Assembly (NCBI GenBank): GCA_965204905.1
Contig: OZ242042.1
Span: forward strand, 898,778-962,777
Reading direction: 5' to 3'
Length of the DNA stretch: 64,000 nt
DNA from: Dehalococcoidia bacterium
Lineage (GTDB): Bacteria > Chloroflexota > Dehalococcoidia > Lucifugimonadales > UBA3495
The first letter of the stretch is position 1, and every line of letters starts with the position of its first letter. The notes under the pieces were generated by a model, which made no database searches, was not told the origin of the DNA, and saw only the letters and a list, made by a program, of their open reading frames with translations. Shown here piece by piece: positions 19,401 to 64,000 of this stretch. The position numbers were made by a program, and so were the translations under genes.

Positions 19401-19894
19401 TCGAAGGCACCGCCGTCAATGAGATGGTTAAAGTTGGCCTTCATGGCGTCGCGATACTGGGGCGCGATAGCGTAGGCGTAGGCGTCGAATGCGGCCCGAA
19501 GGTGCTCCGCCGATGGTAGTTCCGCATCCTCATCGAGGCTCAACATGAACTTCACTGCCGCTTCCCGTTGGGCGTTCGTCCGGACTGTGGTCTGCCACGA
19601 GCAACGTGCCGAGTTTGCGACTGCGGTCCCTTGGGCGACAATGTGGGTTGGAGACGCTCCAGCGCCGTATAGGCCAAATTCCAAAACCTCTTCCAACGTG
19701 GGGACTTCATACTCGAACATCGCCCCGGAAGAAGGAGGATGGAGAAAGTTAATCCCGGACACGTCGCGCGGAAAGGTGTCTGGCCTGGGCATCACTCCGG
19801 TAGCCTCGGGAGCTCTGCACGCGATGGCGAGCAACGCGAGCAGCAGCGTGGCGACAAGGGCGAAAATTCTCAATGTGCTCATGGTCAGTTTCAC
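16490..19894 (-). CDS. Large secreted protein: two plant-type LRR blocks flanking several Fn3 domains
   Basis: Signal peptide. LRR consensus such as [36 protein letters not shown]. Several Fn3 units ([26 protein letters not shown]). Confidence 0.85.
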   Translation of the reverse strand: [1134 protein letters not shown]

Positions 19895-30624: not shown

Positions 30625-31275
30625 CTAGAAGTCGTCGGTGGCGCAGTCCTCGGGCTCGTACTCGTCTTCCAAGCGTTCCGGGCAGTCTGCGGCCGTGATG
30701 TCGCAGAAGCAGCACTCCTGTCGGCTGAGCACTCGTCTTGCCGGTTCGTCGGCTGACAGGCGGCGGATCAGCGCGCCCAGGTTCTGGATGAACTGCTCGT
30801 CGACGGCCTCTGCCGAAACGCGGACCGTGTGATCGCGGTAGGTGACCTGCCCCCTGAGTTTGGCGTTTCGATACCGCTGGAGTGCCTTGGGGATGGCGTA
30901 CAGGTAGATCATGACCTGGACGGTGTGGCTTGGGCTTTGGTGGCCGGTCTTGGCGTCGACGATGACGGCGTGGTCCTCCCTGCGGGCGATGATGTCAGGT
31001 CGGCCGGCGAGTGTCGCGGTCTTGCCGTGGAGTTCAAACCGGTTTTGGGCCTCGATGTCGACGTCGTGGCCGCCGACGGTCCAGTTGGCGATGCGCTGGT
31101 TGAGGAGCGCGCTGTGGTCGAGCATCGACTTGGCTCGGTCGAAGTCGGACGGGACGCGTTCCCAGCTTTGATGGTGGGCCTTGAACCAGATGGCCCACTC
31201 GCAGGAGTTCTCGCCGGTGAGTAGCCTGGGCAGCCAGGTTGCCCAGATGTAGGGGAAATCTCGTTGCTCGGCCAC
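30625..31275 (-). CDS. Cas4-like PD-(D/E)XK nuclease (family A, copy A3)
   Basis: GTG start. ENSCEW, GRPDII..AVIVDAKTG, QVMIYLY and CCFCDITAADC. Confidence 0.8.
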   Translation of the reverse strand: MAEQRDFPYIWATWLPRLLTGENSCEWAIWFKAHHQSWERVPSDFDRAKSMLDHSALLNQRIANWTVGGHDVDIEAQNRFELHGKTATLAGRPDIIARREDHAVIVDAKTGHQSPSHTVQVMIYLYAIPKALQRYRNAKLRGQVTYRDHTVRVSAEAVDEQFIQNLGALIRRLSADEPARRVLSRQECCFCDITAADCPERLEDEYEPEDCATDDF

Positions 31276-35288: not shown

Positions 35289-35311
35289 AGCGTCTCTTCC
35301 TCGTTGGAGTC

Positions 35312-37201
35312 CTATCGGAGGGCCTCGACTACGCGTCGTCGATAGTCATCGCTGAGATCCTTGAATTCCTCAATGAGCAGTTGGTCCGTCTCAAGATTTC
35401 TCCCGCTGTCCATGGGCACGGCCTTCCTAAATAGCCACTCGACTTTTTCGTGTGCCCTTTGGTCCGGTCTCATGCGGACTGAATGGACGGCGAGCCTTCT
35501 TGCCAGCGGGGACTGGGAGGCTATCAGGCGGTCCAGCCATGATTCCAGCAGTTCCGGTTCATTCTGTCCCATCCACTCCAAGCAGTCTCTGGCGATGTTC
35601 ACCATCTGGTCGATGCCCGCTTCTCGGCGGTTGCCTTGGGAATCCCCTATCATGTGACGGCCTGAAGAGTCTGTGTCGCGTTCGGCGGTGGCCAGACCCC
35701 ATTGCTCCAGGGTTCTATGTCGGTTTTCGATATGCCTCACCGCGTGGTCCAGGGTTATGGCCGCGACCGTTCCCATGTGCTGGTTCACGTTGGCCCAGGC
35801 CGCCGACAATATCCAGGCCTCTCCCAAGGTCGTCAGCTCGATTTGGTTCCCTGCGGGTCGCCTTGGTTGCGCTCTGATGACAGGCCGGAACAATTCGTCG
35901 AAGATGTTCGCGGCTTCTTGGTATAGTTCGCTCTGCACACCTAGTTCAGCCAGCCGGTATAGGCCGTCCGATTTGCGGGCATCCTGGTCTGCTGGGGTTG
36001 CTGAGAGCAGGTACGATACCCATCGGCTTATCGTGCTGGACGTTCTGGTATGTCCATCATCGAGGAGCCGGTGGGTGATGTCCCACCAGATTTGCGGATG
36101 GAGTTTTTGTCCGGCTTGCGTGATCGTGGCTATGGCTTCGTCTGGGTCGTGAGCAGCAAGCAGTCGCGCCAACCACGTCAGAAGCGTGCCATTTTCCGTG
36201 ATGGGCGCGTCGTCAAAAGCCCCCGCGACGTACTGCTTGTCTATGCACCACTCGACCCATCGGAGGCTCTGTGCGTTCGCTGTGAATGCCGGCGTGAGTT
36301 CCGGGTCCTGCAATGCTCGGTCGATGATGTTCTGCGATCCTGTGTCAAGGGGAGGATTCGGTTGGCTCGCTATTTGCGCGATCATCTGGTGCCATGTTGA
36401 GGAAGACCTTCTCTGGTACTCCGCCAGCTCGGCGATGGCTTCGGCTGCCTCGTCATGGTTTTGGTTTTCCCCTAGTTGGTAAGCGATGGGTTCTATACCT
36501 AGAGAATGCCAACTTTGATTGCCAACCGTCAGTTCGTGCGTGAGAATGAACCTCCGCGCTGGTTCGTTGCTGGTCGGCATGGCCCGCGCCAGATAGCGCA
36601 CTATCGGGTCTTGGTGGCTGTAGCCGACGAAGAGGACGTGCTGTGTCCTGAAAAGTCCTTGGAGGAACTCCAGTGCCCAGCGTTCGTCCAAGTATGCTCT
36701 GCCTATGTCTGAGTCCGTTAGGACCATGTCTTGAGGCTGGTCAATTACTCCGTGCAGGTCCACTATTCCGGTGAATCGTCCGCAGGGCGGAAGTGCCGGC
36801 GCAGCGTAAACTTTCCCGGTTTGTTGGATTTCCTTTCCTGCGCTCGTCGCCTCGAACAATTGGTCGAAGTTGGTGGTTACGAGTTTTGGCGTCGCCCCCC
36901 TTGGTCGAATGTCCAACAGGTCTCGATGAAGTTGGTTTGGATGGGCGCCCGTGAGTTGCTCAACGATGTAGGCTCTTATGTCGCGTCCCTCCATTTCAAG
37001 CCTACCGAGGAACTGATCGTCATTTTCCTCTTCGGTTCGGTTCACTTGGAAGTGCTCCTGCACTTGTTTTAGCAGAAGAGGAAAACTGGGCAGGTTCGAT
37101 GGGCTTGGGATCGACACGCCAGCTCCGGCGAAGACCACCAAGTTATCGTCGCGGAGTGCGTTCATCAGCCTATCGTTGAATTCTACGTTCCCGAGTTTCA
37201 T
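35312..37201 (-). CDS. SIR2_2-family (sirtuin-like NADase-type) protein with a helical C-terminal extension
   Basis: LVVFAGAGVSIPS (GAGxS), VTTNFDQLFE and IVDLHGV. About 350 aa of helical repeats follow. Confidence 0.85.
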   Translation of the reverse strand: MKLGNVEFNDRLMNALRDDNLVVFAGAGVSIPSPSNLPSFPLLLKQVQEHFQVNRTEEENDDQFLGRLEMEGRDIRAYIVEQLTGAHPNQLHRDLLDIRPRGATPKLVTTNFDQLFEATSAGKEIQQTGKVYAAPALPPCGRFTGIVDLHGVIDQPQDMVLTDSDIGRAYLDERWALEFLQGLFRTQHVLFVGYSHQDPIVRYLARAMPTSNEPARRFILTHELTVGNQSWHSLGIEPIAYQLGENQNHDEAAEAIAELAEYQRRSSSTWHQMIAQIASQPNPPLDTGSQNIIDRALQDPELTPAFTANAQSLRWVEWCIDKQYVAGAFDDAPITENGTLLTWLARLLAAHDPDEAIATITQAGQKLHPQIWWDITHRLLDDGHTRTSSTISRWVSYLLSATPADQDARKSDGLYRLAELGVQSELYQEAANIFDELFRPVIRAQPRRPAGNQIELTTLGEAWILSAAWANVNQHMGTVAAITLDHAVRHIENRHRTLEQWGLATAERDTDSSGRHMIGDSQGNRREAGIDQMVNIARDCLEWMGQNEPELLESWLDRLIASQSPLARRLAVHSVRMRPDQRAHEKVEWLFRKAVPMDSGRNLETDQLLIEEFKDLSDDYRRRVVEALR

Positions 37202-52149: not shown

Positions 52150-53922
52150 TGATCCACGCCGAGATTCCCGCCAATTTCAGTGATGGTGACGACGCCGTGG
52201 GGGTTATCGCCAGGATCTCCGAACCACGCCGGTTTGGTTGGCCAGCAGGGTCAAGTTGGCCACTGTGGCGGCCAGGTACAACTGGCACTTGGTCTTGACC
52301 CGTCCGAAGTAGCGAGCCTGCCGGATGCCCAACTGCTCCAGTCGAGCCAGTCTATGCTCCGCCACCACCCGTAGCTGCCGGTACTGATCGTAGTCGGCGC
52401 TTTGCTGCAAGGCCCGCGCCGATTGCAGCAAGCCTTCCTGGGGGTGGATCAGCACCTGGCGTCCCTTCCTGCCCTTGGCCGCAAAGCACTGGGACCGCAA
52501 CAGGCAGCCCTGGCACACCGCACCGTCAAACCGGAAAGCTTGCAGCCGACGCACCGTCCCAGTAATGTCGGTGCGTTTCCCCGCCGGCACGATGGTGCGA
52601 GTGATCTGTCCTGCCGGACAGGTGCAGCTTCCCGCCGACAGGTCGATGCTGAAGTCTTCCTTGGGGAAACATTTCCGGTTGGGACGACCCGGCACTCGGG
52701 CCACCAGCCTGCGCCCAGCATCTGCGGAAACCTGACGGGTGCTGCCGTCGCCGTAGGCGGTGTCCCCCAAGGCCTCCACCACCGCCACATCGGCGCTGGC
52801 CTCGCTCTGTTCCACCAACTCCAGCGCCCCCAGATTATCGGGAGCGTTCCCCGGCAACACATCCACCGCGGTGATCAATTGGCTGTCGGTGTCCACCACC
52901 ACAGCGGCCTTGTGTCCGTCAAAACGCCGGCTCTTGCTCTTGTGGCCGTGGCGCATCTGTAGATCGTGTACCGACACCATCCGGTCCTTGCTCACACCAT
53001 CTTTCAGGCTCACCCCGCCGTCATCATCGCCACCGCTGTCGCGCTTCACGTCCTGGAGCAGTAATTGTCCCAGCAAATCCGCCGTGTCAACCATCGCCTG
53101 CCGCTCGGCGCTGTCGACGGGCACCCAGTCTTGGGTTTGCCGAGCCAACTCCAGCAACCGGTCGGCGTCGGCCACAATCTGTCCCAACAACCTCCGCCGC
53201 GCCCGACGGTTGGACCAGTCGATGACCGCTTCCCCCTTCACGCTACTGCCCACGTAGCGTTTGTAACCCTGGCCCTCCGCCCAGCGCCGCACCGGCACAC
53301 CGTCCACCGCCGCCAGCGCCCGCATCAGCTTCACGATGCCGTCGCCCAGAAGATTGTAAGTGTCCTTCACCGCACCGCGTCCCAGGACGTAGGTCGTGTC
53401 CATGGCCACCCGCATCCCACGCTTTCCCTTCAGGTAGCCGGCCTCCCGCGCGAGCCGCAGGCTCTGCTTGAATACCTCACGCACCTTGTCGTGCAAAATC
53501 AACTGCGCTCGGAACACCTGCAGCGTGCTCTTGGCAAAGGGCCGATCCTCGATCTCAATGCCCAACGCTACCTTCCACCGGATGTCGAAATCGGCTCTGG
53601 CCTTGGCCTCGGCGTCGCTCACCTTGTCGTGGGTCTGCAACAACAGCGCCGTGGCCAGCAGGCTCGGCGGCACGCTGACCCGCCCATTGTCCATGCAGTA
53701 CAACTCGGCGAAGTCGGCGTCGCGAAACAGCTGGCCCCGCAATGACGCCAGCAGCCGATAGAAGGTGTCTCGGCCCACCAGGTCCAGGTACAACTGGTCC
53801 GCCTCCCAAAGCCCCCTCTGGTCGGATCGCTCGCCCATCATGGTCTCTCTCACTTCGCTCCGCTATCTCAACTGGCCCGGAGTATAACTCCCTACTCCAT
53901 CAACCGGGGTTTCCGACCGCAT
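52150..53922 (-). mobile_element. IS1182/IS5-like insertion sequence (ends approximate)
   Basis: The right end is placed where homology with the truncated second copy (54355-54523) stops (GGGGTTTCCGRCCG). The left end is not resolved. Confidence 0.6.
52204..53853 (-). CDS. DDE transposase with DUF772-type N-terminus
   Basis: 549 aa. GRVSVPPSLLATALLLQTHDKVSDAEA..DIRWKVALG, and C-terminal GIRQARYFGRVKTKCQLYLAATVANL. Confidence 0.85.
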   Translation of the reverse strand: MRETMMGERSDQRGLWEADQLYLDLVGRDTFYRLLASLRGQLFRDADFAELYCMDNGRVSVPPSLLATALLLQTHDKVSDAEAKARADFDIRWKVALGIEIEDRPFAKSTLQVFRAQLILHDKVREVFKQSLRLAREAGYLKGKRGMRVAMDTTYVLGRGAVKDTYNLLGDGIVKLMRALAAVDGVPVRRWAEGQGYKRYVGSSVKGEAVIDWSNRRARRRLLGQIVADADRLLELARQTQDWVPVDSAERQAMVDTADLLGQLLLQDVKRDSGGDDDGGVSLKDGVSKDRMVSVHDLQMRHGHKSKSRRFDGHKAAVVVDTDSQLITAVDVLPGNAPDNLGALELVEQSEASADVAVVEALGDTAYGDGSTRQVSADAGRRLVARVPGRPNRKCFPKEDFSIDLSAGSCTCPAGQITRTIVPAGKRTDITGTVRRLQAFRFDGAVCQGCLLRSQCFAAKGRKGRQVLIHPQEGLLQSARALQQSADYDQYRQLRVVAEHRLARLEQLGIRQARYFGRVKTKCQLYLAATVANLTLLANQTGVVRRSWR

Positions 53923-53947: not shown

Positions 53948-54334
53948 TCATGGGTCTTCGGAAAGGCGTATGACAGAGGATTCGTCTGCGAGGAAGTCGA
54001 TGCGGATCTCGTCTTCGCCGGTGTGGTGGGGCAGGCGTATCGCAATCCAGTAGCAGTACGGAGCCAAGTTCTCGAGGTGGATGGAGGCATTTTCGTGGTG
54101 GATGAGGGGATCGGAGGTGATGATGTCGTCGGACGGCTCTACTTCCCAGACATCGAGTGGTGTTGTCGCAGGTTCGGTGAACATGGTGAAGACACGGAGG
54201 TCCTCGGAGGTGCGTACAGCAAGAGACAAGCTGAACCGGCCCAGGCGTGAGACGGTGACCTGGGCGCTGCGGGCAAGGATCTCGTCGACGTGTTGTGGGT
54301 CGTCTGGGAAGAGGCGGACTTCGATGCTATTCAT
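53948..54334 (-). CDS. Hypothetical 128-aa protein trapped between a full and a truncated IS copy
   Basis: Clean ORF with no recognised motif. Confidence 0.45.
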   Translation of the reverse strand: MNSIEVRLFPDDPQHVDEILARSAQVTVSRLGRFSLSLAVRTSEDLRVFTMFTEPATTPLDVWEVEPSDDIITSDPLIHHENASIHLENLAPYCYWIAIRLPHHTGEDEIRIDFLADESSVIRLSEDP

Positions 54335-54354
54335 GGTGCTCAGCCACCACTAAG

Positions 54355-54523
54355 GTTGTTGTCGGGACAATACGGCTCAGCGACATCGCGGAACAACTGG
54401 TCCGATTCCCAAAGTCCTCTCTGATCGGACCGCTCCCCCGACATCGCACTCTTCACTCCGCTAGCTTGGCTGGCCTGGAGTATAATCCGCTACTCCATAA
54501 ACTGGGGTTTCCGGCCGAATTTC
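54355..54523 (-). mobile_element. Truncated second copy of the 52150-53922 IS (5' end plus first ~35 codons)
   Basis: MSGERSDQRGLWESDQL parallels MMGERSDQRGLWEADQL. The upstream 90 nt align with 53854-53922. Confidence 0.65.
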
Positions 54524-54760
54524 TAGGGCGAAGAGGCGTCGCTGTAGGGTCTTGGAGGTCGCCACCGGCTCGCCCAGTCCCCAGATGGTGAGCCGGCGTG
54601 ACCGGCGAGAGCATATCGGCATCGACCAAAGGGCGGAGATCGTCGAAGGCAATGCAGATGCGGTCAGGCTGCTTGCGTAGTAGCATCCGATGGGTGCTCC
54701 TCGTTTCGGGCTGGTTTTGTGATTCAAAAACCATTATCCCCGAAGCCGGGAGCACTTTCT
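54524..54760 (-). pseudogene. IS1380-family transposase, internally deleted and interrupted
   Basis: N-terminal MLLRKQPDRICIAFDDLRPLVDADM is joined out of frame to GLGEPVATSKTLQRRLFAL (the same segment as in 39511-39860), then cut by the truncated IS. Confidence 0.55.
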
Positions 54761-54853
54761 TATCCCTTCAGCGCGCTGTCACACTTAATCTTTTCGGTGG
54801 ATTGGCGCTTAGGCACATCCCCGCGTATCGCGTTGTTTTCCTGCCCGGTTTTG

Positions 54854-55020
54854 GAGTGGCGAGATTTTCACGGCTTGAACGTTTGCGATTGAAGTGGAGA
54901 GGTGTTGGTGGTACGATCTTCTCACGTAAACCCACCGGTACCCTACTCGGCAATAGAGGGCGAAAGGGGCTGGTCACTTGAACCCCGGGGTGTTGGTCAG
55001 CCAACGCCCCGTACTTTTTG
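54854..55020 (+). other. Conserved ~165-nt unit X2 (degenerate motif, hairpin, T5 tract)
   Basis: GAGTGGCGAGATTTTC ... GGGGTGTTGG-tcag-CCAACGCCCC GTACTTTTTG. Homologous to X1. Confidence 0.55.
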
Positions 55021-55460
55021 AGATAGATCTCTATCCGTTGGGGCGTTTGTTGGCGGAGACTGCTCTGGCGGTTGTGGACGCGACGGCGGGTTTGGACTAT
55101 CAGGGGATGCGGCTATATGGGTCTTACGATCCGGTGAGTGCTGCCGGGAACCGACAGCGTAACTGGTTTACCAATTTTGCCAGCCAAGTTCCGGGAGAAT
55201 CGGTGACGGCCGTGCCGCGGCAGAGGAAGCGGACTGGTCCGGTCTGTCCTTCCTGCAACGATGTGGTGGAGCGTTGCCCGGATTGCGGGAGCGATATGCG
55301 GGGTACCGAGGAGAAGGGCGTGGACACGCGCATTGCGACGGATATGGTCAGCTTGGCGTGGGTTGACCAGTACGACGTGGCTGTGCTGGTGTCGTCCGAC
55401 CGGGACTTCGTACCTGTCGTCCAGTTCTTGGACAGCAGGGCAATCAAGGTGGTGCGATGA
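54978..55460 (+). pseudogene. NYN/LabA-like (PIN-fold) domain protein with inserted zinc ribbon, N-terminus replaced
   Basis: GVDTRIATDMVSLAWVDQYDVAVLVSSDRDFVPVVQFL and CPSC..CPDC. The first ~15 codons are the X2 hairpin, so the native 5' end is gone. Confidence 0.6.
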
Positions 55461-55577
55461 GGTCATGGCAGCGTTCGAGCAGGAGTTGGGCCTGTATGGC
55501 GTCGGCGGCCGCAATTGACGTTCCGAGTTCACGGGTGGATTCGGTGGGCCTGTAGGGCTCTTCTTGGGTCGGCGGAA

Positions 55578-55605
55578 TGCAAAGAGCCGCCATTGCGGCG
55601 GCTCT
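55578..55605 (-). terminator. Stem-loop with short U tract (paralog of 62796-62821)
   Basis: Minus-sense AGAGCCGCC-GCAA-UGGCGGCUCU UUGC. Confidence 0.4.
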
Positions 55606-55740
55606 GGGATCGGTGACGGTGGGTATGCTACGGCGTTGGCGGTGACGTCGGTGGCGTTCCTGCTGGCTTTGAAATCCCGTGGTTGGGCAAAGAGACTGAG
55701 AGGGTTTGATTTGGCCTATAGCTAGGCCGGCGCCTTTGAT

Positions 55741-55828
55741 GTAGGGTAGTGGAGATTGGAGCGAAACGGTGGCGTCTGGTGTTGTCATGGCGGGTCTCCG
55801 GGCTGGCTGCCGGGTATGAAAATGGGGT
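55741..55828 (+). repeat. 3' half of a C-type repeat plus its conserved extension
   Basis: GCGAAACGGTGGCGTCTGGTG...GGCTGGCTGCCGGGTATGAAAATGG, as at 14231-14296 and 47351-47417. Confidence 0.55.
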
Positions 55829-55838
55829 GCTCAAGGGA

Positions 55839-56242
55839 ACGGTCTGGTCATGGGAGTTTCTGGACAAGCGGGATCCCGTTCAACTGGAGGGACCGTCTGG
55901 TGCTGGCAAGAAATTTCTCGCCCAGATCTTGGGCTACTCGGCCATCCGCGTCGGACGCGCTGTGCGCGTCATCATTGACTTCCTCTGCCTCTACAGCCCA
56001 CTGCCCACCAGTCGGCCGATCTTTACGAACTCATCCTCAACCGCCGCCGTTCCTCCGGTTTCGTCATCACCAGCAACCGGGCCGTGGACGAGTGACTGAG
56101 CCTCTTCGACGATCCCATCCTCGGCAACAGCGCTTTGGATCGTTTGGCCAACGCCAGCTGCCAGATCGTCATCGAGGGTACCAGCTACCCGGAACGGCTG
56201 TCCCCACACCGCGTCCTGCTGGGTGCTACAGGAGGTGATTGA
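55839..56242 (+). pseudogene. IS21-family IstB helper ATPase remnant
   Basis: WEFLDKRDPVQLEGPSGAGKKFLAQILG (Walker A), then after a frame change ADLYELILNRRRSSGFVITSNRAVDE*LSLFDDPILGNSALDRLANAS with an in-frame TGA. Confidence 0.7.
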
Positions 56243-56333
56243 CCGCCAAATAGCAACCTGATATTGATCAAAATCGCCACGCGCCCAAGGTGGTACATAG
56301 CCCTTGGCGATCACTGGCTCAATGTCCGGGTCC

Positions 56334-57942
56334 GTTGAGAAAGTCGCCGAACGGGAGCAGGATCTACCGAGGCATGGGCTTGCTGTGTTGCGTCCACCGG
56401 GTTAGCCATCCAATCCACGATGACCGCACCACGAAATTAGCGACTGCATCGTCGGTGGCGTGCCCCGCGTTGGCGGCAATTGCGTCGGCGGGGGCCACCG
56501 GACCGGGCGGCCCGACGCCGCGCCCCAGTTTCCGCACCATCTTCAGCACGTTGTGTGCCAACGCCGCCATGTAGCCCTCGCAGTCCACCTTCCAGAGTCC
56601 CCGCAACCGGGACTTCTCCCATCCCAATCGGTCAAGAGAACCGAAGGTTCCTTCCGCGATGGTCTTACGCCGGACGCTCTCCCGCCAGTACGCCGCAGTG
56701 CGGTTGCGCTCCCGGGCTCTCGCATACTCCGGGTGATATATCGTTACTCCGAAGAAACGTCGTTTTTGCCCCGGCGGGAGGCAGGTGTCCTTGATGGGGC
56801 AGGCCTGACAATCCTTCTGACGCGCCACGTATTGGTAGGACCGCTGCCGTTTGTGGTACGTACTCCGGCGCAGGATTTTGCCCTGTGGGCAAACCAGGTG
56901 GTCGCCGTGATAGACGAAATCGCCGCTGGCCACCATGCTGGTTTCCTGCTTGGGATGGATGGGAATATACGCGGTGATGTCCTGTTCCTCCAGCAGATGC
57001 CGGAGCCGACCATCACTGTAGCCGGTGTCAGCAGCCAGTGACACCGGTTGCAGTGGGAGACCCTCCAGCAGGCCAGCGACGGCTTTCGATTCCCGTTCCG
57101 AGGCATGGGTTACCCCTCGGGAGAGGATGAACCCGCCCAGGTCAACGATGACGTTCTCCTGGTACTGCAATCCCGACACCTTGCCGGCCCTGGTGGTCCT
57201 CCAGCGAGCGTCGGTATCAACTGGGTTCAGCGGCATCCGGCCTTCTGGGCTCTGGAAGTACCGCACTTCCTCATGTTCAACACCGTCGTCATCCACGGTG
57301 GTCGTGGTCAGCACGAAGAGGCCGTTTTCCTCGATGGCCTGTTCCTTGAACTCCGCCACGGTCAACCCGCTGGGCGCCAGGTCATACCCGCTCACGTTGG
57401 CCTTGACCAGGCTGGCATCGACGTACATCTCCGGCGACAACATCCCCAACCGCAGCAACTCGTCGTTCAGGCCGTCGAATATCGCCGTGAAGCCGTCCCG
57501 ACCGATCCGGTCGATGAAGTGGCTGATGGAAGAATGGTCAAACACCGGGTCGTCGATGGTCAGGAAACAGAACCAGCGGTAGCAGATGTTCTCCGAGATG
57601 GTGGAGCACAGCCGGCGGAAGGAGGCGATGTTGTACAGCGAGCAGATCAGCAGCGCTCTCACCATCACCTCAGGATGGATGGCGGGTCTGCCGAAGTCGG
57701 GGCAATAGCATTCTTCCAGGGGTTCGACCAGCTTGGCGAAATCCAACTGCTCGTCAATGCGGATCAGCAGGTGATTAGGATCAATGAAATCCCGCAGCTG
57801 CTTGGTGGTGAACTGAAACAGGGTGGAGTCGCGGCGGCTTCGGTCCAGAGGCTCGATCATAGGCACCATCGGCAACGGCGGATTTCCCGGCATTGTAGCC
57901 GAACTCATCATTGAACCCCACAATCAAGCCGACTTTTTCAAC
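56334..57942 (-). mobile_element. IS1182-like insertion sequence
   Basis: Terminal inverted repeats GTTGAGAAAGTCGCC (56334-56348) and the reverse complement GTTGAAAAAGTCGGC (57928-57942). No target duplication recognised. Confidence 0.7.
56364..57923 (-). CDS. DDE transposase, IS1182-type
   Basis: IDPNHLLIRIDEQLDF..GRPAIHPEVMVRALLICSLYNIASFRRL..YRWFCFL..FDHSSISHF, and C-terminal RLRGLWKVDCEGYMAALAHNVLKM. Confidence 0.9.
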   Translation of the reverse strand: MWGSMMSSATMPGNPPLPMVPMIEPLDRSRRDSTLFQFTTKQLRDFIDPNHLLIRIDEQLDFAKLVEPLEECYCPDFGRPAIHPEVMVRALLICSLYNIASFRRLCSTISENICYRWFCFLTIDDPVFDHSSISHFIDRIGRDGFTAIFDGLNDELLRLGMLSPEMYVDASLVKANVSGYDLAPSGLTVAEFKEQAIEENGLFVLTTTTVDDDGVEHEEVRYFQSPEGRMPLNPVDTDARWRTTRAGKVSGLQYQENVIVDLGGFILSRGVTHASERESKAVAGLLEGLPLQPVSLAADTGYSDGRLRHLLEEQDITAYIPIHPKQETSMVASGDFVYHGDHLVCPQGKILRRSTYHKRQRSYQYVARQKDCQACPIKDTCLPPGQKRRFFGVTIYHPEYARARERNRTAAYWRESVRRKTIAEGTFGSLDRLGWEKSRLRGLWKVDCEGYMAALAHNVLKMVRKLGRGVGPPGPVAPADAIAANAGHATDDAVANFVVRSSWIGWLTRWTQHSKPMPR

Positions 57943-57968
57943 AAGCCCGTCCGCGGCGTTTCACAGCC

Positions 57969-58313
57969 ATGGCCTTGGTTGGGTTGCTTTCGTATTTCGC
58001 CGCCCGCAACCACGCTGCATTAGTCAATTGGACCGCACTCGCCGGCGGTTTGACTATGCTGACATTGGCAACGTCCGCGCCGGATTGCAATCCGGTGGGA
58101 AGCATTGTCTCCGGCTTGATGATTGCCGCCATGTTCGCTGGCGCCGGATCGATAAAGGTATGGCTGGCAGGCAACACCAGCAGGCCACGCGCCAATTCCC
58201 GGAACATTCCGGTGATCCTCTTTGTCCGGTGCAGTGCTACGGCTTACATGGTGATTGTGGCTCTGTTTGCGGTTTTGGCGACGTTCAACGGTGCTATCAA
58301 CGTCGATATATAG
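57969..58313 (+). CDS. Hypothetical membrane protein
   Basis: 114 aa with four hydrophobic segments. Preferred over the overlapping Arg-rich 288-aa frame. Confidence 0.4.
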   Translation: MALVGLLSYFAARNHAALVNWTALAGGLTMLTLATSAPDCNPVGSIVSGLMIAAMFAGAGSIKVWLAGNTSRPRANSRNIPVILFVRCSATAYMVIVALFAVLATFNGAINVDI

Positions 58314-58337
58314 GGCGCAATCCTGATTTTCTGTGGA

Positions 58338-58826
58338 TTGGGCATAACGGCTGCTGGCACGCTGTCTGTAAGGCGGAATCCGCGGAATATCATCGCTTTG
58401 TTGGGAGTCACGATTTCAATAGTGGGGGCAGCTATCGAAATGGACCGAGCGTTTCTCAAACACGATGCTCCGTTCGAGACCTGGCAGGTCCTACTGGTAG
58501 CTGCGCTGATGTGGATGGTGTTGATACTGCCTCTGGCTTTCGATACAGCCAACAGCGCGATCCGCCGTCTGGGTTTGTTCCTAGTCGCCCTGTTGGCCGG
58601 AGCCTTCACATCTCTGATGGCGGTTGGGATACTGATGCTTATTGTCGGCACATGCGGCGGCGTGCTATCCCCAGCCTCGTGGAGTACCGTCCTTACTATA
58701 GGTGGCCTGATCGGACTTGGCGCCGTCGTATGCACGTTTCATGTTGTTCGTCGGCAGTTGGGACCCAGAGGCATTAGCCTCGGCAATGCTCGTCACGCTT
58801 GCACGGGCGCGTTGCTGTCATCCTGA
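58338..58826 (+). CDS. Hypothetical membrane protein
   Basis: 162 aa with five hydrophobic segments. Confidence 0.4.
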   Translation: MGITAAGTLSVRRNPRNIIALLGVTISIVGAAIEMDRAFLKHDAPFETWQVLLVAALMWMVLILPLAFDTANSAIRRLGLFLVALLAGAFTSLMAVGILMLIVGTCGGVLSPASWSTVLTIGGLIGLGAVVCTFHVVRRQLGPRGISLGNARHACTGALLSS

Positions 58827-59131
58827 CCCATGACTGGTGCACCATCAGGACGTGCGGAATCGCCAACTTCTGCGCGGGGGATCGACTGGCACTGACGGCT
58901 AGGGTTTCGGCGGCATTACCTAAATTTTTGATTTCCGAACTTTGTGCACAATTCTCGTTTGCCAGGGTGGTTCACGTAAGCATCGGATGTTGCATATTCT
59001 TGGTATTTCACTGCTGTCGGTTATCGAAGTCGCCGCATGATCATGCCCCAAATGGCCTACGTATGGGTAATCGGGTCAGTGCTTCCCACGCAGTATCCGC
59101 CAACCTCCCTAACGGTAGTGCCGTCACCACA

Positions 59132-59638
59132 TCACCGCGCCATCAAAAGATCACGAAGTTCGGCAATGCTGTTCGCGATATGGTCTGGTCTTGACGCCAC
59201 CAGTTCCGAAGGATCCGCGATTCCCCAAGTGGCACCTATTGAAATTACATTCGCCGACCTTGAGGCTTGGGTATCATGCGGTCTGTCGCCGATATGCACG
59301 ACTTCACTTGGTGTGAACCCTGACCGTTCCATAACGATATGCAAGCAAGATGGGTCAGGCTTCCGACGAGCCATATCACGGTATCCGATGACTAAATTTT
59401 CGGCTACCGGCCACTCTCTCAGGCCGGCTACTATCTCGGCACAGCGCCTGGGGCTGTGTGTGACGATTGCCAGCGTTTGTCCATTGGCAGCCAATTCGGT
59501 CAAAAGCTCATCCACTCCGGTATAGGGTTCAACTTGGCTCATCTCCTGGAAAACAGCCTGCCATTGCTGTCGATTGCGAAGGCTTTCCAGGTGACTCGTG
59601 TCGACCAGTGTCTGATCGAAATCGAATACGATCAGCAT
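59132..59638 (-). CDS. HAD-superfamily phosphatase
   Basis: Motif I DFDQTLVDT, later VTHSPR and IGDRPHD. Overlaps the upstream gene by 7 nt. Confidence 0.85.
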   Translation of the reverse strand: MLIVFDFDQTLVDTSHLESLRNRQQWQAVFQEMSQVEPYTGVDELLTELAANGQTLAIVTHSPRRCAEIVAGLREWPVAENLVIGYRDMARRKPDPSCLHIVMERSGFTPSEVVHIGDRPHDTQASRSANVISIGATWGIADPSELVASRPDHIANSIAELRDLLMAR

Positions 59639-60693
59639 GAGTGCCCTCCTTTCTTGAAAGATGATCTCTCCAGATAATGGAGAAACTCCGACGGTTTAGA
59701 AAAACCCCGAGCACCCATTTCGTTTACCAACTTTCTATTGCCGTTCGTCGCTGGATTGTCAGTGAAGCCTTCGATAGGTTGGAAGCAGGCTAACTCGCGT
59801 CCGTTACCCTGTGCCAAACAAAACCGCGCCGTGTGCATCGCACCGCCATCAACGTCTGTTTCAACGACAAATACACAATCTGAAAGGCCGCTTTGAATAC
59901 GGTCCCGTGCTACGAATGCCCACCGGCCGACTTTGGCGCCGGGAGGGTGTTCGCTGACAAGGGCCCCCCCGACGTCGATGATACTCTGCGCTAAATCGCG
60001 GTTCTCCCTTGGATAGACCCGGTCGAGGCCTTGAGCCATCACAGCTACCGTCGTACCACCCAATCTGACGCACTCGGCATGAGCCTCAGCATCACAGCCG
60101 TGTGCTAGGCCACTGACCACGGCTCCCCCACAGCGCACCACGACTTCGGAAACTCTCTTGGAAACGTCTCTGCCTCGATCTGTTGGTTCTCTCGTTCCAA
60201 CAACCGCCACGGACTTCGCGTATCCCAAAGCTTCGTTGTTCCCCAGCACATACAACAACGGCGGTGCCGATGCTCTGGCTGGTTGAAGGTCCCTCAAATG
60301 TTTGAGCCGTTCGGGATAACCATCGTCGAAAAACGAATACACGCTGATGTCCAGTGATTCACAGTGGTCGAGGATGTCGAGTCCGTCTCGCCACGCGGAT
60401 CTTAGCTTTTCCTCCGGGACCTCGCCGTTGCCTAGGGGGTCAGCTAGTTCGCGGAAGATGTCCTCTCCGTTCAGCGTATTCGTGTCGATCGATACCGAGC
60501 TGATGCCGCCCCAGCGATCCACCGACCGGAACGCGGTATCAGGCCCCACGCGTGGCAGTCGCATCAGGGCTAGTAACAGCACACGATAGTCAAAGGCGTT
60601 CAGCGCTGTGGCATCCGCCGTACCACTATTGCCGACCACTTGGGCATCACCTTGCTGACCGTGTTGGCTGTCTAATTCAAGTTGGACTGGCAT
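59632..60693 (-). CDS. DprA/Smf-like Rossmann (SLOG-fold) protein, divergent paralog 2
   Basis: SVAVVGTREPTDRGRDV...AVVSGLAHGCDAEAHAECVRLGGTTVAVMAQGLDRVYPREN...FVARDRIQSGLSD..VVETDVDGGAMHTA. Confidence 0.75.
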   Translation of the reverse strand: MPVQLELDSQHGQQGDAQVVGNSGTADATALNAFDYRVLLLALMRLPRVGPDTAFRSVDRWGGISSVSIDTNTLNGEDIFRELADPLGNGEVPEEKLRSAWRDGLDILDHCESLDISVYSFFDDGYPERLKHLRDLQPARASAPPLLYVLGNNEALGYAKSVAVVGTREPTDRGRDVSKRVSEVVVRCGGAVVSGLAHGCDAEAHAECVRLGGTTVAVMAQGLDRVYPRENRDLAQSIIDVGGALVSEHPPGAKVGRWAFVARDRIQSGLSDCVFVVETDVDGGAMHTARFCLAQGNGRELACFQPIEGFTDNPATNGNRKLVNEMGARGFSKPSEFLHYLERSSFKKGGHSC

Positions 60694-60729
60694 GAGGGCT
60701 CGAATGGTGTTTGCTCGGGTCTGGCAAGC

Positions 60730-61383
60730 CTATTCGACGATATCGTCTGAATTGGGAACTCGCCTGGCGATGAAGAGACCGATAACCGGAATACCTGGCA
60801 AGTGTTCGTTCAATAATCGTTTGACCGCTTTGAAATGCGAGCCGGTGGTCAACACGTCGTCTACGACAGCGATAAATTCGGGTTGTGGTGCGAGTAAGTT
60901 GGTGTCGATGTTGTACCCCTCGGCTATCTCTTCCGGGCCGCGCCTTACATCCGAAAGGTGAGCAGGATCGTAGCTGAGCGGTTGGACGATCAGTTCCCGA
61001 ACGTCCAATGGCCGAGCGGGTCGAACCAAACGAAGCATTTCGCCCAAGCGATCATCGTAAAGCGGATCGGTGCGCGCTTTCGACGGTGGGACTGGAACGA
61101 ATGTTATCCTGTCCAGGCGGTCCTGTCCCACAGCGACTCGGAAAGCATTGGCCACCGTTCGGATTGCCTGTCCCTTGTAGCGCCATTCAGGCCGATCTCG
61201 GCGGTCGACGGACTTCTTCATGTTGAGGATAAGGTTGTTGGTCTGACTGTAGGCGTATCCGGCACGCGCCGTGTATTCGCCCAAGAAGTGACAAACGTCG
61301 CCGTCAGTCAAATACCAATGATCTTGACGTTGCAGTTCGTCAATCCTCGACCACCGTTGTGGAAAGGTGTTGGCGGATGTCAT
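60730..61383 (-). CDS. Phosphoribosyltransferase, ComF-like
   Basis: Start moved to the ATG at 61383 (MTSANTF). PRPP loop FIAVVDDVLTTGSH and upstream FVPVPPSK. Confidence 0.8.
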   Translation of the reverse strand: MTSANTFPQRWSRIDELQRQDHWYLTDGDVCHFLGEYTARAGYAYSQTNNLILNMKKSVDRRDRPEWRYKGQAIRTVANAFRVAVGQDRLDRITFVPVPPSKARTDPLYDDRLGEMLRLVRPARPLDVRELIVQPLSYDPAHLSDVRRGPEEIAEGYNIDTNLLAPQPEFIAVVDDVLTTGSHFKAVKRLLNEHLPGIPVIGLFIARRVPNSDDIVE

Positions 61384-62248
61384 CGTACTCCCTGACGCGA
61401 ATGGCCCCGCGCTTTTCCATTTCCGCTGGCCACGTGATAGCTTCGTTGGCGAAACAGTTATCGAAGATGAACAGCTTCCTGTTTTGACGAAGTGCCGCAC
61501 GCGCTTGATGTAATGTGCCCGCAGTGTCGCTCACCTCGACTATGACAGTTGCGTCTGTGAGAGCTGTCATCGTCGCGTTCCTTTCGGGGAAGAATGATCG
61601 GTTGCTGCGGTAGTCCTGTTGGCCGTACCGTTTCACCGGTACTTGGCTCACGACCAGATAATGGTCGGCGAGATAGCGTTGCAGGTTCGCGTGTTCGCTC
61701 GGATATGACTCCGACAAAGGGGTTCCGATAACCGCAAAAGTCCGTCCATTCTCCTCCAAGGCGGTTTCGTGGGCCCGGCGGTCTACACCGGCAGCTAAAC
61801 CGGACACCACCGTTATATCGTCTCCCACCAGTGAACGGACCAAATCCGCGGTTACAGCCAAACCTTCTGATGAAGCCTTGCGAGTCCCAACCACCGCAAC
61901 GGCTGGTGAATGGACCAAATCCCACCAGCCTTGGTAATAGAGCAACTCGACGGGGTTTGCCGCGTCTCGGAGTTTGACCGGGTAATCGCCGGTACCGTTG
62001 ATCTGGACACCGAAACCCGCGACGCCCACGCGTTCAAATTCCTGGTGGACAAATTCGGCGTGGTTGTAGGCGACGTCATGGTCAACGAAATCAGAGGGCA
62101 AACATTCCGGGCAGAGGGCGAACCGGTGTGCCAGACTCTCGAACGTGGTGCCTCTCTCGCACCATAGCGCTTCATATGCCCCCATCTCTAGGAATGGTGA
62201 AACGGCGCCAGTGACCAGGTCCGATTGCTGGAGGGTCAAATCAACCAC
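61340..62248 (-). CDS. DprA/Smf-like Rossmann (SLOG-fold) protein, paralog 1
   Basis: AVAVVGTRKASSEGLAVTADL...VVSGLAAGVDRRAHETALEENGRTFAVIGTPLSESYPSEH...FPERNATMTALTDATVIVEVSDTAGTLHQA. Confidence 0.8.
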   Translation of the reverse strand: MVDLTLQQSDLVTGAVSPFLEMGAYEALWCERGTTFESLAHRFALCPECLPSDFVDHDVAYNHAEFVHQEFERVGVAGFGVQINGTGDYPVKLRDAANPVELLYYQGWWDLVHSPAVAVVGTRKASSEGLAVTADLVRSLVGDDITVVSGLAAGVDRRAHETALEENGRTFAVIGTPLSESYPSEHANLQRYLADHYLVVSQVPVKRYGQQDYRSNRSFFPERNATMTALTDATVIVEVSDTAGTLHQARAALRQNRKLFIFDNCFANEAITWPAEMEKRGAIRVREYDDIRQHLSTTVVED

Positions 62249-62795
62249 TGGAAACCTCCTTTAACGGGCATTCTGGGGTCGCGACGATGGTATGCCAACC
62301 TTAAACCGAGTGTCAACGTGGATCCCGGTCTGGCTGACGTGTGCGTGCGCGGTGGTAGCACCTGACGATGAGAACTGAGCGATTACCAGTCCGCGGACGA
62401 GCTCGTACCCCGGATTATCGTAGAACAATTGTACCGCTGGCCTACAGGCTGTGCAACATGGAACATGAAGCTGGATTTCTCCTGAACTTCACACCCCAGT
62501 GGTACCCGTTCCTGCCGCCCTTGGCAGTACGCCTCGTCGGAGGCTTCCACTCCCTCTCGCGCCGGCCCATTCTGACCATCTCTTCGGCCATGGCTAGGTA
62601 TGGGTCTGGTAGGTTTGGGACCAAATCGATTGCTCGCAGGGCGGCGGCCCCCGCTCTTGGGTAGTCTTGGTCGCCTATGAGGTCGTGGTATTGGTCGAGC
62701 TGGAGTTGGGTCTGTATGGCGTCGGCGGTTATCGGTGGCGTTCCGGGTTGGCGGGTGGGCGGTGGGCATGCGGGATTCTCCTTGGACCGGCGGGA

Positions 62796-62821
62796 TGCAA
62801 AAAGCCGCAATTTCGGCGGCT
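62796..62821 (-). terminator. Intrinsic terminator downstream of the 63030 gene
   Basis: Minus-sense AGCCGC-CGAAAUU-GCGGCU followed by UUUUGCAU. Confidence 0.5.
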
Positions 62822-63029
62822 CGGGTTGGTGATCGGTTTTTGCTGGGTCTGATCTGTTGTTTGCCGCGAGGGAGCTACGCTCTCTTCCGCCGGTTCACGG
62901 TCAGCACTGTTGTCGCGATCAGTGCTGTCGTTACCGACATAGGTGGTGGCCATCCGTTCAGGACCAGCAGCGTCGTGATGGCCGAACCATCGTTCCGGCC
63001 TGACGCTAGACGACGATGGTCCAGTTGGT

Positions 63030-64000
63030 CTATCGCCCAAGACCATCTAAGTGTTCGAATCTCTTCTCCAGCACCTCGCGTGGCACTAGGGGTTCGTCGC
63101 CGTGGGCTTGCACCAATCGACGGAAGAATTCATCCCAGCCAAATTCAAACGTCTCATCCTGACCGTTCATCATGAGAGTTGCTCTCATTTTTCTCTCATG
63201 CAAACGGTCTCCAATCCCAAAACGTGGGAGACCAAATATCTTCGTCCAGGTGACGCTTTCCTCATTATCGATACCCGCTTGGTCCAACATACGCTGTTCA
63301 TCCACTGTCAATTGGTTTGCGAAGAACATAGCGAACTCGGATGGAGTTCCATGGATTTTCGCGCGTTCGCTTATAATCTGAGCTATAGAACTTACATTTT
63401 GGATCGCAGCTATTACGTCGTGTCGGCTGGAGTCAATGGATAAATTCACAAGCATGCCGCGCAGAACACCCACGAAATCCCTTACCCTGATCCTTGATAC
63501 AAACTCAACAATGGCATCAAAGAGCTCTTCGACCTTCAGTTTGGATCCGATCAATCGGTCGGGCCCCAACGTCCCTCTTCTAGAGAAAATGTCATGGACG
63601 AATCCATTGGAGACCACGCAATACCTGTGGTGCTCAAGCGTGTGGAATATTTCGGTCAACTTGACGCTTCCGGCTGGCTGGCCGTCATAATCGTAAATCG
63701 GCACATCGAGATTACCCTGACCGCTGAAATCCTCTAGCAGCGTGCGCACCTGTATCCCTGAGAGGAGTAAAGCGTCCCGTAGGATTTCTTCTTGTCGATG
63801 GATGATTGCATCTGCCCACTCTGCTTCTGGCAAGGTAACGATTTTGGTGCCTGAACTCGGGTCTATCTGCTCGACAAGGGCTTGAGAATCCGCCGGTACT
63901 CCCCTTTCTAGTTCCGACACGAGACGCCGTGAGCGAAATACCGGTCTGACGGCCTCGTCTATCGCGTGGAGGAAACTGCCGTGGATGATCTGGCGGCCGC
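63030..64000 (-). CDS. Hypothetical protein, possibly 5'-partial
   Basis: 296-aa ORF from the GTG at 63920, but the frame remains open to the window edge. No motif recognised. Confidence 0.55.
   Translation of the reverse strand, partial: GRQIIHGSFLHAIDEAVRPVFRSRRLVSELERGVPADSQALVEQIDPSSGTKIVTLPEAEWADAIIHRQEEILRDALLLSGIQVRTLLEDFSGQGNLDVPIYDYDGQPAGSVKLTEIFHTLEHHRYCVVSNGFVHDIFSRRGTLGPDRLIGSKLKVEELFDAIVEFVSRIRVRDFVGVLRGMLVNLSIDSSRHDVIAAIQNVSSIAQIISERAKIHGTPSEFAMFFANQLTVDEQRMLDQAGIDNEESVTWTKIFGLPRFGIGDRLHERKMRATLMMNGQDETFEFGWDEFFRRLVQAHGDEPLVPREVLEKRFEHLDGLGR

Follow-up and report, generated by a model that had tools for sequence, protein, structure and literature searches.

A probable expanded four-gene form of the Shosta (ShosTA) anti-phage cassette in a Dehalococcoidia bacterium

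Four adjoining minus-strand genes in the 64,000 nucleotide stretch of Dehalococcoidia DNA analysed here (the window) code for two DprA-like proteins, a phosphoribosyltransferase (PRTase) and a HAD hydrolase, raising the question of whether this combination is linked to DNA uptake, a nucleotide pathway or phage defence. A sequence-only reading had favoured a nucleotide-signal, modified-nucleoside or anti-phage module. Matches to the PADLOC ShosA and ShosT models uphold the anti-phage part and argue against a nucleotide-signalling pathway, and they point to Shosta (ShosTA), which had not been recognised although it is known and experimentally characterised (PMC11961720; PMC12961424). By sequence, all four proteins are assigned to Shosta components or the Shosta family, and the cluster probably represents an expanded, four-gene form of the Shosta-family anti-phage type IV toxin-antitoxin/abortive-infection cassette, likely forming one operon.

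The packing of the four minus-strand genes between 59132 and 62248 (Table 1) is as the sequence-only reading had described it. In the order A1-T-A2-HAD, A1 and T overlap by 44 nt (61340-61383), T and A2 are separated by 36 nt (60694-60729) with no remnant of a further PRTase gene (X, see below) in between, and A2 and HAD overlap by 7 nt (59632-59638). A consensus scan identified only one promoter-like site upstream of the four genes, a consensus match alone (10/12 positions), which lies 38 nt upstream of the shosA1 start and at the extreme edge of the block conserved in a second contig, while a scan for minus-strand terminator-like sites found none within the cassette. The higher AT content and neighbouring IS noted earlier are also borne out, with a GC content of 0.556 in the cluster and 0.600 in the window as a whole (which puts the cluster at the 3rd percentile of segments of its size) and an IS transposase gene (DUF772/DDE_Tnp_1_6) at 56364-57923, the end of which is 1,209 nt from the HAD stop codon. 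As a separate observation, a DSR1-like gene is located 22 kb from the cassette.

Table 1. Positions in the window of the four genes, the promoter-like site and the conserved block
Feature	Position	Strand	Description
shosA1 (A1)	61340-62248	minus	302 aa; DprA-like putative antitoxin, A1 type
shosT, short form (T)	60730-61383	minus	217 aa; putative PRTase-only toxin
shosA2 (A2)	59632-60693	minus	353 aa; DprA-like putative antitoxin, A2 type
HAD gene	59132-59638	minus	168 aa; small free-standing HAD hydrolase
Promoter-like site TTGACA-18-TACCAT	62287..62316	minus	consensus scan
Entire conserved cassette	59128..62316	minus	promoter-like site and four genes; blastn block common with contig L011

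Both DprA-like proteins match the Pfam DNA_processg_A profile (6.8e-51 for A1, 9.5e-54 for A2), as expected of the two diverged DprA-type proteins seen earlier. A1 further matches the PADLOC ShosA model PDLC03961 at 5.6e-91 and A2 matches PADLOC ShosA at 5.6e-64, while matches to the PADLOC PsyrA model are far weaker (2e-24 and 7e-30, respectively). The two are ShosA paralogues sharing 32% identity, and A2 is 38% identical to the annotated ShosA of phage PfAC02a. PDB matches for A1 include ShosA (9vzo/8zva, ~3.5e-20) and DprA (3uqz, 4e-24), and A2 matches ShosA 8zva (1e-21). Both proteins fall below the cut-off of the NCBIfam dprA equivalog TIGR00732 (151.4 bits for A1 and 171.6 bits for A2 against 191.15) and of the PRK10736 equivalog (115 and 130 against 495), in agreement with the earlier rejection of a role in DNA uptake. 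ShosA has been shown experimentally to be an antitoxin which binds ssDNA and RecA, and residues R139, R234 and R261 of E. coli ShosA are needed for its antitoxin activity (PMC11961720; PMC12961424). All three of these ssDNA-contacting positions align with arginine in both A1 and A2, and 12 aligned sequences show no variation at R139 and R234. With these arginines kept in both paralogues, the proposal that they bind or cleave a nucleotide-like molecule is not supported. The RecA-contact positions K200/R206 of E. coli ShosA are occupied by S/Q in A1 and R/A in A2, although these contacts were mapped with E. coli RecA and could change along with the RecA of the host.

The open reading frame of T (60730-61500, minus strand) could extend to a GTG at 61500, but a start at the ATG at 61383 is favoured by the family alignment, in which M1, S3, F7 and P8 are nearly invariant. 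There are 1,944 relatives of T with lengths of 215-225 aa. T contains the motif VVDDVLTTGSH and matches the PADLOC ShosT model PDLC03962 (3.1e-44); the Pfam search yielded no significant match, with E-values of 0.27 for Pribosyltran, the profile proposed earlier as a check, and 0.24 for the ComF-like PRTase_3. The best PDB fold matches of its AF2 model (pLDDT 88.8) are the ShosT crystal structures 8zvc/8zvd (E 4.5e-4, probability 1.0), a moderate match with a TMq of 0.48. The PRPP-loop residues D175, D176, T180 and G181 do not vary among 64 relatives, and the DD pair corresponds to D331/D332 of E. coli ShosT, which are essential for toxicity (PMC11961720, PMC12961424). Similarity to E. coli ShosT is limited to the fold, as the protein in the PDB was not retrieved with T by phmmer or by the family profile. 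The earlier description of T as a ComF-type PRTase therefore holds for PRTase, on the PADLOC and fold matches, and fails for ComF-type. H. pylori ComF is the third fold match (E 7e-4), a fold neighbour only, and the T family has a single invariant cysteine (C31) and hence no 4-Cys zinc finger, so that T was rejected as a ComF/ComFC competence PRTase.

The HAD protein carries the motif DFDQT and matches Pfam HAD_2 (1.6e-23), in keeping with the HAD phosphatase predicted earlier. It is 31% identical to residues 6-148 of the long ShosT of PfAC02a (BLASTP, E 1e-17), and comparison with this N-terminal domain gives an hhalign probability of 98.9 and an HMM E-value of 6.9e-25. On these sequence comparisons it corresponds, as a split, free-standing protein, to the HAD/pyrophosphatase domain at the N-terminus of long ShosT proteins, rather than to the dephosphorylating step of a pathway as had been supposed. 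This link runs via the Pseudomonas PfAC02a ShosT; the N-terminal domain of E. coli ShosT was neither retrieved with the HAD protein by sequence nor present among its top 50 fold matches. The HAD domain of E. coli ShosT is active on PPi, and toxicity drops slightly when this domain is mutated (PMC11961720). Fold matches of the AF2 model (pLDDT 96.2) include the Bacteroides thetaiotaomicron type III pyrophosphatase 3qu7 (E 2e-10), which together with PpaX-type pyrophosphatases is among the most strongly matching specific fold and profile neighbours. The catalytic residues D6, D8, T10, T60, S62, K93, D118 and D122 are invariant within the family, the modelled cap is unusually small (~40 residues), and weak, sub-threshold Pfam similarity was found to PNK3P (E 0.0045) and NIF (E 0.0038).

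An independent metagenome contig (L011) carries all four genes at identical lengths and in identical order, in agreement with the expectation that the order would be conserved elsewhere. In blastn, the cassette aligns with positions 5068-8259 of L011 in one piece over 3,202 nt at 76.3% DNA identity, with exact common boundaries around the four genes and unrelated flanks on both sides, and the recurrence of this 3.2-kb block indicates that the arrangement is beyond chance. All four genes are under purifying selection, with dN/dS values against L011 of 0.09 (A1), 0.16 (T), 0.11 (A2) and 0.12 (HAD), those of A2 and HAD being obtained at a dS above 1. The four-gene form was found only in these two contigs; its halves are each widespread. 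An A1-type gene is normally found directly upstream of a short shosT, in ~40 loci of which 27 are IMG/VR viral contigs (L001-L009, L012, L013 and L055-L081; Bradyrhizobium, Dyella, Alphaproteobacteria MAGs and IMG/VR viral contigs). The order A-T is the rule in this ShosT clade, and no HAD gene was found within ~5 kb of the A1-T pair in ~38 of these loci. The A2 type is normally located between PRTase X and a HAD gene, the latter always after A2 in the loci surveyed, and ~25 such X-A2-HAD loci, often in defence islands, were observed (L014-L019 and L021-L048; Rhizobium leguminosarum, Rhodobacter capsulatus and others). PRTase X is 14-23% identical to T and matches PADLOC ShosT at ~1e-9 to 1e-10, and X-A2-HAD represents a split, three-gene Shosta form that is undescribed in the literature searched. 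Genes found next to related loci include those of Wadjet (JetB/JetD, SbcC-type ATPase), Kiwa, R-M, SMODS and DarT-Macro, a co-occurrence with defence islands that the sequence-only reading had proposed as a check. The discrete cassette, the nearby IS, the DSR1-like gene, the A1-T pairs on viral contigs and the defence-gene neighbours of relatives together represent a mobile, defence-island context.

The reference system, ShosTA of E. coli APEC O1 and KTE181 (Kimelman 2012; Rousset 2022; Millman 2022; Pu 2025, PMC11961720; Yang 2026, PMC12961424), likewise is a small mobile cassette with a PRTase toxin bearing a PRPP-loop DD motif, a DprA-like antitoxin with the three ssDNA arginines and a toxin-associated pyrophosphatase module of the HAD type. 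It consists, however, of two genes in the order T-A with a single 424-aa pyrophosphatase-PRTase fusion, whereas the four genes here run A-T-A-HAD and include two ShosA paralogues with different residues at the RecA-contact positions, a PRTase-only T and a HAD gene at the far end, two genes downstream of T. The Pseudomonas filamentous phage PfAC02a (OR790968) encodes an annotated long ShosT and ShosA adjoining Kiwa; its ShosT shares the HAD domain and a PRPP loop which aligns with that of the T family, but HAD and PRTase are joined in one 478-aa protein, followed by the only ShosA. The A1-T half of the cassette belongs with the two-gene loci as a typical representative, with the same overlapping layout and identities of 42-66% for T and 54-78% for A1, although in those loci neither a second ShosA nor a HAD gene lies within ~5 kb. 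The A2-HAD half is a member of the three-gene loci, sharing the abutting layout and defence-island context (39-46% identity for A2, 44-63% for HAD), but these have their own X directly upstream of A2. The cassette is thus a hybrid of two Shosta subtypes, ShosA1-ShosT and PRTase X-ShosA2-HAD, in which the ShosA1-ShosT pair occupies the usual position of X. PsyrTA/RqlHI also combines a DprA-like antitoxin with a PRTase-containing toxin, but PsyrT/RqlH contains a RecQ-like helicase part (PMC4670107) and the PADLOC PsyrT model PDLC03928 spans 689 positions, while T has only 217 aa, lacks the helicase part and has no PsyrT match in PADLOC; with the much weaker PsyrA matches, this identity was rejected. 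A type III retron with a PRTase effector was likewise rejected, as none of the neighbouring ORFs encodes an RT and no Rfam family was found at 54000-64000 with E-values up to 0.1.

The hybrid might alternatively comprise two abutting, independent units, a complete A1-T Shosta system and a toxin-less A2-HAD remnant lacking its own X, in which A2-HAD would be an orphan antitoxin/immunity pair that does not serve T and acts, for example, in anti-addiction against incoming X-type systems or in DNA repair. Each module stands alone in many loci, T-family toxins normally occur without a HAD, L036 and L039 are natural cases of A2-HAD next to a truncated remnant of X, and in L084 both subtypes are complete and in tandem as separate systems, with a separate promoter-like site (TTGACT-N17-TACCAT) before A1. 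The short T-A2 gap without any X remnant, the exact boundaries of the L011 block around all four genes and the one upstream promoter-like site nevertheless make this explanation unlikely, and purifying selection on A2 and HAD is as strong as that on A1 and T, which is unexpected for leftovers of a dead toxin-antitoxin system while compatible with an independent function.

It is also rather improbable that the HAD protein acts on the antitoxin side. In that reading its substrates would be 3'-phosphates at damaged DNA ends or the nucleotide made by the PRTase, and by dephosphorylating them it would aid repair or detoxification by ShosA2 instead of promoting the PRTase reaction. Translational coupling links the HAD gene to A2 and not to the PRTase gene, through the overlap seen here and the abutting genes of the X-A2-HAD loci, and both its very small modelled cap and its sub-threshold similarity to the macromolecule phosphatases PNK3P and NIF would suit such a role; the homologous domain is, however, fused to the toxin and not the antitoxin in long ShosT, its E. 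coli counterpart contributes slightly to toxicity as a PPi hydrolase (PMC11961720), and its top specific neighbours include pyrophosphatases. An ordinary dprA/comF uptake locus, or a small-molecule pathway in which the DprA/SLOG proteins would be LOG-like nucleotide-binding enzymes handling a modified nucleoside or nucleotide-like signal, is very improbable. DprA is a member of the SLOG superfamily, A1 weakly matches the SLOG LDcluster4 model (E 7e-4, under the cut-off) and H. pylori ComF is among the fold matches of T. Against this, all four proteins map onto Shosta components, ShosA is an experimentally demonstrated ssDNA and RecA binder whose DNA-binding arginines are kept, both DprA-like proteins score too low for dprA, T lacks a significant ComF-like profile match and zinc-finger cysteines, and the genes form a small mobile cassette found in prophage-like DNA and in defence islands.

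For the favoured four-gene Shosta cassette, we infer the enzymatic roles, toxicity, defence function and co-transcription, and that A2 and the HAD protein serve T; the functions are carried over by homology from E. coli ShosTA, whose PRTase lacks detectable sequence similarity to T. T would act as a PRPP-dependent PRTase toxin which perturbs purine/nucleotide metabolism and damages DNA replication, while ShosA1 and ShosA2 would be labile ssDNA- and RecA-binding antitoxins that counteract this damage but do not bind the toxin. ShosA activity may be lost on phage infection, owing to host shut-off and/or phage ssDNA, and toxicity would then be released. For the HAD protein, hydrolysis of the PPi that the PRTase sets free is the most likely role; this would pull the toxic reaction forward, although T may not need the HAD protein, since short ShosT proteins as a rule function in its absence.

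Module exchange between Shosta subtypes is tentatively suggested, whereby the native PRTase of a split three-gene system gave way to a short PRTase toxin together with the ShosA encoded upstream of it, leaving one toxin served by two diverged ShosA proteins and by a pyrophosphatase acting in trans. Should the four genes cooperate, ShosA and the pyrophosphatase would act generically on PRTase-inflicted damage or chemistry, as predicted for type IV toxin-antitoxin systems, so that toxins would be interchangeable, and the two ShosA paralogues could sense distinct phage signals, broadening the range of triggers. The X-ShosA-HAD loci, which are widespread, would then be an undescribed Shosta subtype, offering separation-of-function material for the ShosT acceptor substrate and the role of the pyrophosphatase. 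In other respects, the locus is one more defence cassette from the known Shosta family and no new kind of biology. In nature the putative pyrophosphatase is split from the PRTase in the fairly common three-gene form and, with its ShosA, has been recombined with another PRTase clade that normally lacks it. These arrangements are natural separation-of-function constructs for pyrophosphatase action in trans, its toxin specificity and the interchangeability of ShosA between toxins, and annotation tools with a two-gene Shosta definition may miss or under-describe them.

The four minus-strand genes shosA1, shosT, shosA2 and the small HAD gene (products A1, T, A2 and HAD; Table) constitute a variant form of the known Shosta (ShosTA) system, a toxin-antitoxin pair which defends against phages (Rousset 2022; Millman 2022). 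The ORFs were found as the sequence-only reading had described them, with a 44-nt overlap, a 36-nt gap and a 7-nt overlap between successive genes. This spacing follows from an ATG at 61383 as the start of shosT, the mechanical ORF of which reaches up to a GTG at 61500; the ATG is accepted as the true start on the strength of 1,944 relatives of T, which are 215-225 aa in length and share the same N-terminal MTS..FP.R motif. The DprA-type and HAD assignments were likewise borne out by Pfam, which finds DNA_processg_A in each of the two DprA-type proteins and HAD_2 in the fourth gene product. The AT-richness and nearby insertion sequence pointed out in that reading were also observed, the GC content of the cluster being 0.556 against 0.600 for the window (3rd percentile) and an IS5/IS1182-like transposase ending 1.2 kb from it.

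Table. Positions of the Shosta-like genes and of other features in the window
Feature	Position	Strand	Length (aa)
shosA1 (A1)	61340-62248	-	302
shosT (T, PRTase)	60730-61383	-	217
shosA2 (A2)	59632-60693	-	353
HAD	59132-59638	-	168
AT-rich ORF upstream of the cassette	63030-63920	-	296
Transposase nearer the cassette	56364-57923	-	
Transposase farther from the cassette	52204-53853	-	
NYN/LabA-like small nuclease	54978-55460	+	
DSR1-like gene, both ORFs	33699-37201	-	
DSR1-like, N-terminal ORF	35312-37201	-	629
DSR1-like, C-terminal ORF	33699-35288	-	529
Cas4-like nuclease	30625-31275	-	
Three surface-type proteins	16490-25547	-	1,134, 436, 1,469

Both A1 and A2 match the PADLOC model of the antitoxin ShosA (5.6e-91 and 5.6e-64, respectively), while T matches that of the toxin ShosT (3.1e-44). 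ShosT is a PRPP-binding phosphoribosyltransferase (PRTase) with a HAD-like pyrophosphatase domain at its N-terminus, and ShosA is a dimeric DprA-like protein that binds ssDNA and RecA rather than the toxin; the triggers proposed are phage ssDNA and the shutting down of host transcription by the phage (PMC11961720; PMC12961424). A1 and A2, which share 32% identity, are related to the solved ShosA chains 8zva and 9vzo (~1e-20 to 1e-21), and A2 is the paralogue nearer to the ShosA annotated in the Pseudomonas filamentous phage PfAC02a (38% identity versus 27% for A1). Exact look-ups of A2 and of P0005 returned no match. When aligned with E. coli ShosA, both proteins retain the three ssDNA-binding arginines, and conservation is not strict at the two residues that contact RecA. 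The link between T and the solved ShosT is made through fold and the PADLOC model only, since searching the PDB with the sequence of T gave only noise and a 64-sequence profile of its family recovered just the PRPP loop of APRT (E ~0.6) and not ShosT. The best fold matches of the AlphaFold model of T (pLDDT 88.8) are the ShosT crystal structures 8zvc and 8zvd (E 4.5e-4, probability 1.0), followed by Helicobacter pylori ComF, PyrR and APRT. The PRPP-loop DD, which is essential for ShosT toxicity (PMC11961720; PMC12961424), is invariant in the T family.

Like Shosta, the cluster thus encodes a PRTase toxin whose PRPP loop is intact and a DprA-like antitoxin with DNA-binding arginines, in a mobile or defence context, but it differs in gene number and order, in its unfused pyrophosphatase and in its duplicated antitoxin, for which reason it is classed as a variant. 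Of the functions proposed from the sequence, the anti-phage module is upheld by the PADLOC matches and the novel nucleotide-signal pathway is not. A role in DNA uptake had already been disfavoured in that reading, and a competence dprA/comF locus is rejected here because neither A1 nor A2 reaches the curated score threshold of true competence DprA and T has no significant Pfam match. PsyrTA was ruled out by PADLOC comparison. A retron effector was also rejected; Rfam searches over 54000-64000 gave no RNA family and no tRNA genes occur in the window, and thus neither a retron ncRNA nor a tRNA integration site was found.

In E. coli ShosT, residues 1-164 form the HAD-like pyrophosphatase and residues 165-424 the PRTase (PMC11961720), whereas T consists of the PRTase only and HAD is encoded separately. 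Searches of HAD against the PDB, by sequence and by fold, retrieved generic HAD-IA phosphatases and the Bacteroides thetaiotaomicron pyrophosphatase, and not E. coli ShosT. The latter pyrophosphatase, a type III enzyme which is among the fold matches of the HAD model (pLDDT 96.2), is the reference used by Pu et al. for the ShosT N-domain (PMC11961720). A tblastn search of A2 against phage genomes identified an annotated long ShosT in PfAC02a. This 478-aa 'HAD family hydrolase/phosphoribosyltransferase' precedes ShosA and has Kiwa as a neighbour, and the fusion supports the split-domain idea. HAD shares 31% identity with its residues 6-148 (E 1e-17; hhalign probability 98.9; HAD family HMM E 6.9e-25) and scores 66 bits against it, compared to 46 bits for the best PDB match, a solved HAD. 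Judged by these comparisons, HAD is the split-off counterpart of the ShosT N-domain. It is not the stump of a truncated long ShosT, as the small HADs form a complete family of 164-170 aa with all catalytic motifs invariant, and the HAD gene of the window is under purifying selection. The profiles of T and of X, a second PRTase family described below, both match only the PRPP loop of the long-ShosT PRTase domain (E ~1e-7), neither being clearly closer; the separate and fused forms may be related by fission or by fusion.

HMMs built for T, X, A1-type ShosA, A2-type ShosA and HAD were run on the ORFs of a first set of loci, drawn from genomes, metagenomes and IMG/VR; loci added afterwards were treated separately. 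The order A1-T occurs in about 40 loci, 27 of which are on IMG/VR viral contigs, and in every T-family locus with upstream sequence the A1-type ShosA overlaps or abuts the toxin start. Aside from the window and the contigs L011 and L084, no HAD is found within ~5 kb of these pairs. A2-type ShosA and the small HAD (~165 aa) belong instead to a three-gene order, X-A2-HAD, observed in about 25 loci and in every small-HAD locus whose upstream sequence is long enough. These loci (L014-L019 and L021-L048; e.g. L015:4364-6498 and L019:4347-6513) derive from Rhizobium, Rhodobacter and many metagenome contigs. They usually lie next to other defence genes, their neighbours including Wadjet, Kiwa, R-M and SMODS as well as group II introns and integrases. 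The PRTase X, ~222 aa in length, has only 14-23% identity to T, although it shares the DD..T.G loop and matches the PADLOC ShosT model (~1e-9 to 1e-10). Decay forms include two loci where only the C-terminal 90 aa of X remain beside intact ShosA and HAD (L036:1695-3474 and L039:2417-4196) and three where the A2-type ShosA is truncated and HAD intact (L040, L041 and L051). A literature search retrieved no description of a split, three-gene or four-gene Shosta, and X-A2-HAD is apparently an undescribed three-gene split form. This is the more general by-product of the analysis; the split pyrophosphatase and the proposed toxin swap, while not very surprising, would be useful to the specialist for dissecting Shosta.

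Further related proteins are encoded at two sites. Directly downstream of the X-A2-HAD unit in L014 (2757-4985), a 742-aa protein carries an S1 domain, a faint fn3 match and a stretch resembling PRTase X, which scores 171 bits against the X HMM; this protein is possibly another PRTase effector, in fused form. In the P2-like Salmonella phage SopEPhi (L082; AY319521, 11098-12646), orf14 and orf15, both annotated as 'unknown', code for a short ShosT of 193 aa (PADLOC 6.1e-17) and a ShosA (4.6e-71), constituting an unannotated Shosta adjoining the portal gene.

The complete order A1-T-A2-HAD, a probable hybrid of the A1-T and X-A2-HAD architectures, occurs among the loci examined only in the window and L011. 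Evidence on whether it forms one system points both ways; an integrated four-gene Shosta variant is most likely, the main rival being a complete A1-T Shosta merely juxtaposed with a toxin-less A2-HAD. Juxtaposition is favoured by the metagenome contig L084 (499-4651), in which both complete systems occur in tandem, X-A2-HAD followed by A1-T, separated by a 107-nt spacer with its own candidate promoter-like site. Against it, blastn aligns the window to L011 in one block (3,202 nt, 76% identity) that begins 68 nt upstream of shosA1, stops 4 nt past the HAD stop codon and has unrelated flanks. A candidate promoter-like site, TTGACA-18-TACCAT by consensus match, lies at the upstream edge of this block, and a scan of 58700-63100 found no terminator-like site on the minus (coding) strand. 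All four genes are intact and identical or nearly so in length in the two contigs, with dN/dS values of 0.09 (A1), 0.16 (T), 0.11 (A2) and 0.12 (HAD) at a dS of ~1, indicating strong purifying selection. On the side of juxtaposition, the A2 and HAD of L084 share only 43-45% identity with those of the window, as opposed to 71% for A1 and 62% for T, so the two Shosta subtypes came together at least twice independently. This repeated association could reflect functional synergy or plain defence-island clustering.

The putative mechanism of the cassette is drawn by homology to E. coli ShosTA. T would use up PRPP in phosphoribosyl transfer, upsetting purine metabolism and DNA replication, and HAD would most likely hydrolyse the PPi by-product in trans, favouring the PRTase reaction. 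ShosA1 and ShosA2 would bind ssDNA, and presumably RecA, and offset the damage until infection takes this protection away. As a minority alternative, HAD may act alongside A2, to which it is translationally coupled, as a phosphatase of DNA ends or nucleotides; its very small cap also speaks for this.

Several other features occur in the window. The AT-rich ORF (GC ~0.49) ~0.8 kb from the shosA1 start has no match in Pfam, PADLOC or NCBIfam, and no counterpart adjoins the cassette in L011 or any other locus. The two transposases have the same domain set (DUF772 and DDE_Tnp_1_6) but a mutual identity of only 23%; the farther one shares 78% identity with a transposase fragment 234 nt upstream of the L011 cassette, hinting that the host genomes or mobile elements are related. 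The DSR1-like gene is either naturally split or frameshifted; the PADLOC Dsr1 model is matched in its N-terminal part by the first ORF (1.3e-35), which carries a SIR2_2 domain, and in its C-terminal part by the second (1.4e-08). The NYN/LabA-like nuclease (PADLOC HEC-09, 1.1e-11) and the Cas4-like PD-(D/E)XK nuclease (7.8e-10) may be further defence-related genes. The three consecutive, very large surface-type proteins contain fn3, LRR, PD40 and CARDB repeats.
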